From NCBI GenBank assembly GCA_964383505.1, contig CAYLHB010000001.1, forward strand, positions 1,232 to 65,231: a stretch of DNA of 64,000 bases, written 5' to 3'. Of the stretch, positions 62,930-63,664 are shown piece by piece. Position numbers and translations under genes: made by a program. Source of the stretch: an uncultured Candidatus Saccharibacteria bacterium. GTDB taxonomy: Bacteria > Patescibacteriota > Minisyncoccia > Phycocordibacterales > UBA12088. Numbering within the stretch: the stretch's first letter is position 1; every line of letters begins with the position of its first letter. The notes beneath the pieces are model-generated. The model ran no database searches, had not been told where the DNA came from, and saw only the letters and a list, made by a program, of their open reading frames with translations.

Positions 62930-63022
62930 CCGGCACTTTCTAAGAATCTGTATAAAACACAACAGGAGTACTCCTAAAAGGAAACTTGCTGTGAAAAGAA
63001 TCGGAGTTTTAGAAAGTGCCGG
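62930..63022 (+). repeat. 23S insertion 1 (helix 9/10 region), ~93 nt, closed by CCGGCACUUUCUAA / UUAGAAAGUGCCGG
   Basis: Absent from the canonical 23S core. Its terminal inverted repeat is shared with insertions 2 and 3. Confidence 0.6.
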
Positions 63023-63169
63023 AAGCAGACCCAGGGAATTGAAACATCTTAGTACCTGGTGGAAAAGAGACCAATAACGGATTTTTTGCCGTGGCGGCGT
63101 CCATTGCCGGTACGGTAAAAAATCCAGGCATTTCCTGAGTAGCGGCGAGCGAAACGGAAGGAGCCCAAA

Positions 63170-63267
63170 CCCAGCACTTTCTAAGTGTCTAACATAGAAC
63201 TACACGGATCCTTATGGTGATACGGCGTCTGTGTTGTAAAATGTTGGATATTGAGAAAGTGCTGGGG
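63170..63267 (+). repeat. 23S insertion 2, ~98 nt, closed by CCCAGCACUUUCUAA / UUGAGAAAGUGCUGGG
   Basis: Same GCACUUUCUA/AGAAAGUGC closing stem. Lies between AGCCCAAACC and GGGUUGUAGGGCGG. Confidence 0.6.
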
Positions 63268-63567
63268 GTTGTAGGGCGGTAGCGTCGGCAACGAGGAGAG
63301 TCATAAAATGTGTTTGTTAGCGGAACGCTCTGGAAAGGGCGGCCCCAGCGGGTAACAGCCCCGTACGCGAAAACGAACACGTCTCTCTTACTACCGTTCC
63401 TGAGTAGCGCGGGACACGAATAGCCTGCGTGAATCCGGGTGCACTAACACCCAAGGCTAAATACTCTTCAAGACCGATAGTGAACTAGTACCGTGAGGGA
63501 AAGGTGAAAAGAACCCCGGGAGGGGAGTGAAATAGAACTGAAACCGTATGCTTACAAGGAGTCGGAG

Positions 63568-63664
63568 CCCCGCACTTTCTAGAACTTGAGTGGCACACTG
63601 AGCTCAAGAATGGAGAAGGTATCTGTTGCGTGCAGAACCTGTTTGAGTTTTAGAAAGTGCGGGG
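63568..63664 (+). repeat. 23S insertion 3 (helix 25 region), ~97 nt, closed by CCCCGCACUUUCUAG / UUAGAAAGUGCGGGG
   Basis: Located where helix 25 IVSs occur in other bacteria (between AGUCGGAGC and GUGACGGCGUGCCUAUUGAAGAAUGAGCCGGCGAG). Same closing stem as the other two. Confidence 0.6.

Follow-up and report, generated by a model that had tools for sequence, protein, structure and literature searches.

What are the three extra hairpins that interrupt the 5' part of the 23S ribosomal RNA (rRNA) gene at the end of a 64,000-nt stretch of DNA from an uncultured Candidatus Saccharibacteria bacterium (contig CAYLHB010000001.1, hereafter the window), and why do they carry nearly the same closing stem? 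The original prediction, made from this DNA by itself, held that three additional segments of ~93-98 nt in the 23S gene share a closing stem and are related elements rather than cases of independent helix growth. Alignment to the Rfam LSU_rRNA_bacteria model confirms the three segments, each at a helix tip, among four segments that are extra relative to the model (75 nt, 52 nt, 79 nt and ~80 nt). The closing stem defines a family of hairpins with covarying base pairs, whose hosts are many different structured RNAs and whose distribution among bacteria of the Candidate Phyla Radiation (CPR) is sporadic. Site positions are given on the Rfam model and in E. coli numbering, and helix names besides H25 (helix 25) are provisional. 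The host gene and the three copies in the window, termed U1, U2 and U3, are as follows.

62778..64000, plus strand: 23S rRNA host gene, 5' 1223 nt (model positions 1-928; Rfam LSU_rRNA_bacteria, 720 bits, E 5.6e-234); the window end cuts the gene
62930..63022, plus strand: copy U1, hairpin cassette; 75-nt insertion in a model loop; core arms 62933-62942 and 63010-63019
63170..63267, plus strand: copy U2, hairpin cassette; 79-nt insertion; core arms 63174-63183 and 63253-63262
63568..63664, plus strand: copy U3, hairpin cassette; ~80-nt insertion in the H25 loop; core arms 63572-63581 and 63651-63660

Three hairpins in one 23S rRNA gene share a closing stem

U1 lies in the loop of the hairpin after H9 (model 152-178, E. 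coli ~158-161), which we take to be H10. U2 constitutes the entire variable hairpin at model 274-297 (E. coli ~275), and U3 caps H25 (model 583/584, E. coli ~545). Two of the sites had been predicted to be classical positions of intervening sequences (IVSs), namely helix 9/10 and helix 25; this holds for H25 and fails for helix 9/10, the insertion being in the next hairpin.

The arms of U1-U3 form inverted repeats of 19-39 nt with 77-95% complementarity (U1, repeat I3, 20 nt, 90%; U2, repeat I1, 39 nt, 77%; U3, repeat I4, 19 nt, 95%), and direct-repeat families also connect the units. Folding yields -40.3 kcal/mol (z -7.3) for U1, -52.3 kcal/mol (z -9.0) for U2, which forms a single long rod, and -48.9 kcal/mol (z -6.4) for U3. 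Specifically, the outermost helix of each fold is the shared closing stem, GCACUUUCUA / U(U/G)AGAAAGUGC, so that the predicted common stem is borne out both by folding (-40 to -52 kcal/mol, z -6.4 to -9.0) and by the inverted repeats. The closing helices comprise 17-22 contiguous pairs and continue as a rod up to ~45 bp; in the core of U2 there is one mismatch, U.G replacing U-A. Among the three units only the arms align, and the interiors share no sequence.

The sequence GCACTTTCTA or its complement, with at most one mismatch, occurs 10 times in the window versus 3.0 +/- 1.6 times after shuffling, a count that 0 of 100 shuffles reach, and six of these ten matches are the six arms of U1-U3. 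Additionally, a covariance model (R1), built from 22 family members and searched against the window with filters off, scores U1 at 61 bits (E 9e-13), U2 at 58.4 bits and U3 at 64.1 bits (E 1.6e-13), that is, 58-64 bits with E ~1e-12 for the three, whereas the next-best match attains 13 bits (E 0.55). The remaining 62.7 kb of the window contains no further R1 copy, and an uptake-signal-like or genome-wide repeat was rejected on that ground. Over the window copies, Rfam gives no intron-family match that would indicate a group I or group II ribozyme core, for which ~95 nt is also too small.

The stem recurs in other structured RNAs of CPR bacteria

A metagenome scan with the pattern GCACTTTCTA-N(50-80)-TTTTAGAAAGTGC returned 10 loci, in 8 of which complementary flanks lengthen the stem. 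A looser genome scan with 18 specified bases returned 118 loci, mostly chance matches; here the CCC...GGG extension, which lies outside the search pattern, is present at 9 of 19 CPR loci versus 0 of 99 non-CPR loci. About 25 independent copies were gathered, from records assigned to Paceibacterota, Yanofskybacteria, Doudnabacteria, Buchananbacteria, Saccharibacteria and Minisyncoccia. Loci L028, L124 and L127 were counted as one instance, because their 23S genes are 100% identical from E. coli ~600 on. No copies were found in 94.6 kb of other CPR loci, a scan of viral_contigs for the motif gave no matches, and none of the copies was seen within coding sequence.

The copies sit at peripheral hairpin tips and junctions of structured RNAs and in the flanks of rRNA and tRNA genes. 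Elsewhere in 23S rRNA, one lies ~45 nt downstream of the U2 site (L128) and another, in Yanofskybacteria-type 23S, at E. coli ~1113-1118, just 3' of the GTPase-associated centre; a placement of the latter at helix 45 was rejected, as alignment with E. coli gives the position stated. In L121, a copy is located 33 nt beyond the 16S 3' end, in normally discarded sequence. In RNase P RNA, the copies of L123, L129 and L111 occupy J5/7, the position of P5.1, and L113 has one copy at P16/17 and one at P19; the P3 of the L123 RNase P RNA is a 45-nt short form of the element. Three homologous group I introns (L132, L104, L048) contain one copy each, in three different peripheral places. Further copies reside in untranslated DNA (L122, L064, L094, L126, L023, L088 and L058), and in L021 and L007 the stem brackets tRNA genes. 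These data support the expected repeated family with a mobile-looking distribution, but not its supposed confinement to the rRNA gene, given the copies that accompany tRNAs, the 16S 3' end, RNase P RNA, group I introns and untranslated regions.

The element itself is not represented among the families of Rfam 15, E-value scans of copy-bearing loci having returned host families only, and we found no description of the motif in the literature or in Rfam 15, which agrees with the remark in the original prediction that such a shared terminal inverted repeat was not known as described.

Three of the copies in untranslated DNA (L122:309-413, L064:2156-2256 and L094:5572-5674) have common host flanks, UUACCCC[...]GGGGUGUAAGA. 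In two of them GAUCUCUAACAUGAA leads into a start codon, and the downstream proteins differ. These flanks suggest that a conserved, so far unrecognised 5' leader RNA may host the element there.

The basal helix covaries and is asymmetric between its arms

Alignment A4 of 22 copies, which are ~75-105 nt in length, gives the consensus 5' CCC-N-GCACUUUCUA-G-AAUUYGA ... UCGAGUUUU-UAGAAAGUGC-N'-GGG 3', in which a U stands opposite the G that follows the core. The invariance of the 9-bp core is partly built in, because the search patterns fixed it; the L132 copies, found with mismatches allowed, are the exception, and one of them has UCAC/GUGA in place of GCAC/GUGC. Across the 23-pair helix, 88% of cells in the 22 copies are paired, compared with 78.5% in column shuffles and at most 50% when the partner is slid, and 13 pairs show changes on both sides. 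In particular, the N:N' pair is complementary in all 22 copies while taking every Watson-Crick form (GC 10, AU 6, CG 4, UA 2). R1 scores all copies at 35-76 bits.

The pair after the 13-14-bp core is G.U in 11 of the 22 copies and the reverse, U.G, once; where the arms differ, they do so by strand-specific transitions, with G.U as the outcome in the host RNA. An 8-bp pseudo-dyad, UUCUAGAA/UUUUAGAA, has its centre at the inner edge of the invariant core. Pairing in the basal helix is continuous, bulges of the bulge-helix-bulge (BHB) geometry being present in 0 of 22 copies. As for target-site duplications, the 8-nt flanks of the 22 copies contain no direct repeats. Seventeen of the 22 copies fold as one long imperfect hairpin with a total helix of at least ~20 bp, and in the majority of these seventeen the interior folds better than its own shuffles (z down to -4.5), the interiors being unrelated in sequence. 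Since the interiors are tRNA-sized, decayed tRNAs were considered for their origin and rejected: Rfam and ARAGORN detect no tRNA in the rRNA-borne copies, and most copies take the form of rods, not cloverleaves.

Copies are gained, inherited and held at the stem while their interiors drift

The closest relative is L132, from the Paceibacterota metagenome-assembled genome (MAG) SH_SHASGE3bin.12, which was reached through the neighbouring 204-aa gene. The product of this gene is 82% identical in L132, and the synteny rplJ-rplL-gene-23S is as in the window. L132 stood in for the 23S beyond the window end, the only contig retrieved by exact protein match being a Logan contig of 2.8 kb whose end lies 25 nt short of U1. 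The window and L132 agree at 295 of 300 positions of the 23S core. L132 contains orthologs of U1 (L132:3148-3246; arms 23/24 and 20/24 identical, interior 16/39) and of U3 (L132:3889-3983; two compensated pair changes, interior 18/46 identical); overall, the orthologous arms are identical at 19-23 of 24 positions and the interiors are effectively unalignable. At the U2 site, L132 has an unrelated ~190-nt insert, and an additional copy resides inside an ORF-less (open reading frame-less) group I intron near E. coli 2593. L113, with its two RNase P RNA copies, comes from the same MAG, and the five copies of this related MAG align in the arms only. RNase P RNA copies at the same site (L123, L129 and L111) likewise keep the stem and differ in their interiors. 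Thus, both in the U1 and U3 orthologs and in the RNase P copies, the pattern is one of stems held by selection while interiors drifted.

More distant relatives, L134-L136, have a neighbour protein that is 47-49% identical and a 23S that aligns closely with that of the window. They carry no copies; short hairpins occupy all three window sites, including a 20-nt hairpin at the U2 site and GGGGUGC-UU-GCACCCU at H25. Because these sites are empty, the window copies appear to have been acquired after the split from L134-L136 and then inherited vertically. U1-U3 do not behave as ordinary expansion segments, being absent from L134-L136 and, in the case of U2, replaced in L132; their presence is sporadic in the manner of IVSs, with copies in the window, in L132 and in scattered CPR lineages and none in L134-L136. 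The empty sites, the different insert at U2 and the occurrence of the stem at other sites and in other lineages sustain the view that these are related elements and not independent helix growth.

The empty U2-site hairpin of L134 (~9560-9590), CCAACACUUUCGGGUGUUGG, matches 10 of the first 11 nt of the 5' arm (CCAGCACUUUC); it could be the leftover of a lost copy or an earlier sequence that favoured insertion. Upstream of rplJ, L132:342-443 and L133:231-332 give a weak, diverged R1 match (18.4 bits, E 0.08; CCCGGCACUUCUU...GAAAAGUGCCGG), which falls in the L10-L12 operon leader of the closest relative and has no counterpart in the window.

The fourth extra segment had been noticed as a smaller hairpin accompanying the other three:

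63075..63128, plus strand: 52-nt extra hairpin (GGAUUUUUUGCCG...CGGUAAAAAAUCC), insertion of 52 nt at model ~229; not a family member

The hairpin exists, but it is not kin to the family. It is A/U-rich (-32.4 kcal/mol, z -6.6), has no R1 match, and occurs in all five relatives examined (L132, L134-L136) with near-identical arms and compensated changes. This presence in 5/5 relatives identifies it as an ordinary lineage-specific expansion, a stable clade-specific 23S segment and not a cassette.

The stem also brackets tRNAs

In L021 the stem surrounds a complete tRNA-Glu; in L007 it surrounds tRNA-Trp, and a compensated variant, GCACCUUCU/AGAAGGUGC, surrounds tRNA-Thr. Each of these bracketed tRNAs is nested in broken pieces of the same tRNA. 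L094 has two tRNA-Thr within other CCCCG.../...CGGGG stems, again inside nested tRNA remnants. For all five bracketed tRNAs, nucleotide +1 past the tRNA end is the first of the 3' arm; three of the five have the family stem or its compensated variant. Leader-trailer stems as a general feature of CPR tRNAs were rejected, as only one further case, with a different sequence, was found among the tRNAs linked to rpmG at other CPR loci. The nested loci (Trp, Thr, Glu) are:

L007:1300-2400, minus strand: nested tRNA locus
L094:3400-4500, minus strand: nested tRNA locus
L021:3850-4030, plus strand: nested tRNA locus
L023:5900-6340, plus strand: nested tRNA locus

At these loci the outer tRNA copies are broken in the anticodon, D or T loop, and the leader-trailer stems measure 11-14 bp; the remnants are common to two CPR lineages (L007 and L094). 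In L023, an ORF that was called GIY-YIG-like by eye lies between the broken and the intact tRNA-Trp. The nesting resembles a history in which cassettes repeatedly supplanted tRNA genes. In another CPR lineage, at L142-L148 (~4178-4640 in L142), a free-standing gene of the 23S_rRNA_IVP family (PF05635), a protein family typical of ORF-bearing IVSs, is located directly upstream of tRNA-Trp, outside any rRNA gene. The window itself has one tRNA gene, at 17425-17497 on the minus strand.

A putative excision cassette read in RNA

With somewhat less than an even chance of being right, we propose that the segments are IVS-type hairpin cassettes whose basal helix is read in RNA, most likely as a cleavage site of the RNase III class. 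Recognition of the helix in RNA, not in DNA, is suggested by the strand-specific G.U, by the strict N:N' complementarity and by the conservation of the stem in old copies. The pseudo-dyad fits a homodimeric double-strand endonuclease, and RNase III is such an enzyme. Like IVSs, the copies stand where L134-L136 have the intact tips of short hairpins. The length of the helices, the position of the bracketing stems relative to tRNA 3' ends and the copy in the discarded sequence beyond a 16S 3' end offer further, indirect support. RNase III excises known 23S IVSs, for which H25 is a classical site (PMC4990558), and it prefers a sequence-structure pattern that includes U-G wobbles in the distal box (PMC6212723, PMC11780869). 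Removal from transcripts has been reported for CPR rRNA insertions, with the suspicion that the short ones are IVSs of the RNase III type (PMC11270868). An ORF with an RNase III signature was not found in the window, which is uninformative, since 64 kb is part of a genome.

In this proposal, a dimeric, double-strand-specific endoribonuclease of the RNase III class would read the basal helix and cut it at the 8-bp pseudo-dyad, where the invariant core meets the interior. Cleavage of rRNA would remove the interior as an intervening sequence and leave a ~13-bp stub, so that the 23S rRNA would be fragmented yet functional; in the tRNA brackets, this cut would coincide with the 3' end of the tRNA. 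Excision would make the cassettes tolerable to their hosts, and they may spread, or may once have spread, between loops of structured RNA genes.

Several points weigh against this proposal. The P3 of the L123 RNase P RNA is itself the short form, and other RNase P copies are at J5/7, P16/17 and P19; cutting them would yield a fragmented RNase P RNA, for which we know of no precedent in bacteria. Copies in group I introns would have no obvious gain from cleavage. To our knowledge, RNase III does not require 13 invariant base pairs, and conservation so strict suggests a more specific reader or recognition at the DNA level. Moreover, the rod structure kept by the interior would be superfluous if the interior were merely discarded, and the motif is absent from the leader-trailer flanks of the complete 23S genes examined.

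Alternative explanations

Some of these difficulties would not arise if mature RNAs retained the hairpins as expansion segments and a shared trans factor, such as a double-stranded RNA (dsRNA)-binding or scaffold protein or an RNA-RNA contact, docked on the invariant basal helix and its G.U, by analogy with the kink-turn/L7Ae module. Extra helices are normally kept at J5/7, P16/17 and P19 of RNase P RNA, where full copies occur, and the short form makes up P3 of one such RNA. The three group I introns that carry copies in peripheral places must fold to splice. A retained module is also consistent with a rod-like interior fold that is kept despite sequence drift, and with purifying selection on the stem sequence in vertically inherited copies. 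A conserved host factor that needs its site is, however, hard to reconcile with a sporadic distribution, in which relatives with a similar core have none of the three copies and no copy occurs among other CPR loci (94.6 kb). Likewise, a regular Watson-Crick duplex with neither bulge nor loop is a poor target for sequence-specific reading by a protein, and the copies that flank tRNAs or follow the 16S end belong to discarded sequence. We consider this explanation unlikely, if worth keeping in view.

The original prediction had suggested, alongside IVS duplication, a MITE-like element (miniature inverted-repeat transposable element). In such an account, the family would be a DNA-level mobile palindromic element, resembling a MITE, a foldback element or a cassette, with incidental effects on RNA; a transposase or site-specific recombinase acting in trans would bind its 14-16-bp terminal inverted repeat (TIR) CCCNGCACTTTCTAG, which has the palindrome TTCTAGAA at each end, and copies would survive only where ~90 extra bases are harmless, that is, in loops of structured RNAs in tiny, gene-dense genomes. 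Several features have the look of mobility: genomes carry several copies at different sites, the sites are empty in relatives, the same termini appear in distant CPR lineages, and homologous introns have acquired insertions independently at three places. Exact conservation over ~14 bp is typical of protein-DNA recognition, and the arm-bracketed tRNAs are nested within fragments of the same tRNA, as though a cassette bearing a replacement gene had entered there, with a GIY-YIG-like ORF at one locus. Yet 0 copies have target-site duplications, and copies in the same genome share the stem only. Transposition ability cannot explain why old orthologous copies keep their termini while their interiors are randomised, nor does the account fit a strand-specific G.U that recurs at one position in 11/22 copies or an N:N' pair that is complementary in 22/22. 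Neither a longer element with these termini nor an associated transposase turned up in the loci retrieved, the scans having been limited to arm spacings of 40-85 nt, and viral contigs gave 0 matches. The lack of target-site duplications, the stem-only sharing, the strand-specific G.U and the stem conserved over scrambled interiors lead us not to favour a MITE-like origin, and we regard it as decidedly unlikely. The explanations overlap, and a selfish cassette that is tolerated for its good excision site would combine two of them.

A bolder version of RNA-level reading, to which we give little credence, is a general 'excision clamp' of CPR RNAs, in which one conserved double-stranded signal, read by a dedicated or specialised dsRNA endonuclease, would bracket everything that is to be cut out or released. 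Its targets would include the intervening hairpins of rRNA and of RNase P RNA as well as entire tRNAs lodged within broken tRNA genes, and the bracketed units could move at the RNA level among the loops of abundant structured RNAs. Such a clamp would be the bacterial counterpart of the archaeal system of BHB motif and endonuclease.

That the helices expanded independently and came to be alike through chance, through gene conversion within the genome or because they converged toward a stable stem, or that they are an assembly artefact, is very improbable: CPR 23S genes do carry many unrelated insertions at the same hot spots (PMC11270868) and the U2-site hairpin of L134, CCAACACUUUCGGGUGUUGG, already resembles the start of the stem, but identical 13-16-bp stems occur in unrelated host RNAs of distant lineages with different G+C, U1-U3 match at E ~1e-12, the CCC/GGG extension is specific to the CPR matches, and the same structure is found in independent assemblies (the window, an NCBI MAG, and JGI and ENA contigs).

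Comparison with known systems

The closest known kind of element, and the one on which the excision proposal is modelled, is the RNase III-excised IVS of 23S rRNA in Salmonella, Yersinia, Campylobacter, Leptospira, Coxiella and Alphaproteobacteria. As in these IVSs, the tip of a 23S helix gives way to an extended stem-loop whose termini are complementary, H25 is a shared site, and presence is sporadic among relatives, which suggests horizontal spread; U1-U3 are extra stem-loops in 23S helix tips with stems of ~20 bp or more. IVSs are regarded as selfish but harmless (PMC4990558). Unlike them, the family has an invariant basal helix that is common to different helices of one gene and is also found in RNase P RNA, group I introns, the 16S trailer, untranslated regions and around tRNAs. 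The H10 and model 274-297 sites of the window are not among the classical ones (H9, H25 and H45), and the copies contain no ORF.

Short non-coding palindromic repeats occupy tolerant sites, structured RNA genes included, in small genomes in other cases, such as the Rickettsia palindromic elements (RPEs) and the STRR repeats of the RNase P RNA of cyanobacteria. RPEs are alike over their full length and also enter protein genes without disturbing the reading frame; the family differs from RPEs in sharing only the basal ~14-20 bp, in having no copy seen in coding sequence and in an arm asymmetry that points to the RNA level. With MITEs and other miniature transposons with TIRs it has in common that it is small and non-coding, with terminal inverted repeats and several copies per genome; unlike them, it has neither target-site duplications nor a shared interior, and it shows the G.U asymmetry and conserved termini in old copies.

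The archaeal BHB motif is a functional analogue of the proposed excision model, in that one RNA signal marks excision points; it occurs in tRNA introns, rRNA introns and rRNA-flanking stems and accompanies the spread of introns to new places in stable RNAs. In contrast to BHB, the family helix is continuous and lacks BHB geometry, and bacteria have no EndA. Religation is neither needed nor implied for the cassettes, because all their sites are peripheral. Similarly, the kink-turn (K-turn)/L7Ae module places one small motif in unrelated structured RNAs (archaeal rRNA, RNase P RNA and small RNAs); the K-turn, however, is an internal-loop motif with a known protein partner and domain-wide conservation, whereas the family is a regular duplex and sporadic.

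A survey of CPR rRNA insertions covers those of at least 100 bp and makes no mention of a shared stem (PMC11270868), and a survey of tRNA introns makes no mention of the hairpin (PMC13011429). The novelty lies in an invariant basal helix that is common to several sites of one gene and to several classes of structured RNA, a combination that is apparently undescribed.

Implications for CPR RNA maturation

CPR rRNA genes are known for their many insertions; for the short ORF-less ones, published work goes no further than counts and the guess that they are IVSs of the RNase III type (PMC11270868). The present data suggest that a subset of them is a single family with an almost invariant 13-16-bp helix that crosses types of host RNA. 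The helix is a candidate processing signal in organisms whose RNA maturation is essentially unknown, and it raises the possibility of fragmented rRNA, even of fragmented RNase P RNA, in bacteria. The family may also serve as a tractable example of non-coding modules that spread among the structured RNAs of minimal genomes. In practice, R1 can flag the cassettes, which lengthen rRNA genes and may break assemblies and rRNA-based annotation of CPR bacteria.

Other observations on CPR rRNA genes

At 60017-62778 of the window there is no 16S gene ahead of the 23S; the order is rplJ-rplL-204-aa gene-23S, and it is the same in L132 and L134-L136. Homologues of the 204-aa gene are called Lrp/ArsR-type regulators by some sources.

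In L121, the 16S gene (5150-6435, minus strand) has an insertion with a LAGLIDADG-type ORF near ~1400. Its 3' tail reads GGAUUCAUUCC in place of the usual GGAUCACCUCC, and the anti-Shine-Dalgarno CCUCC is therefore missing.

The 23S genes of L028, L124 and L127 are 100% identical from E. coli ~600 to the end, but over the first 400 nt their identity is only 80-87%; the insertions that they have at the H10 and ~275 sites are unrelated, and the DNA upstream differs. This pattern reflects either recombination mosaics or assembly collapse of the conserved part.

A second, unrelated insert family, CUGUGGCUCACC(C/U)UUGU..GAGCCACCGCGGAC ... GGUGACGA(A/G)CAGAGGCGAGUCACAG, is found in two to three helices of Yanofskybacteria-type 23S, at L028:2029-2160 and 3667-3793 and, in L124, at E. 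coli ~276, ~545 and ~1866. CPR rRNA genes may therefore, as a rule, harbour several insert families whose members share their ends.

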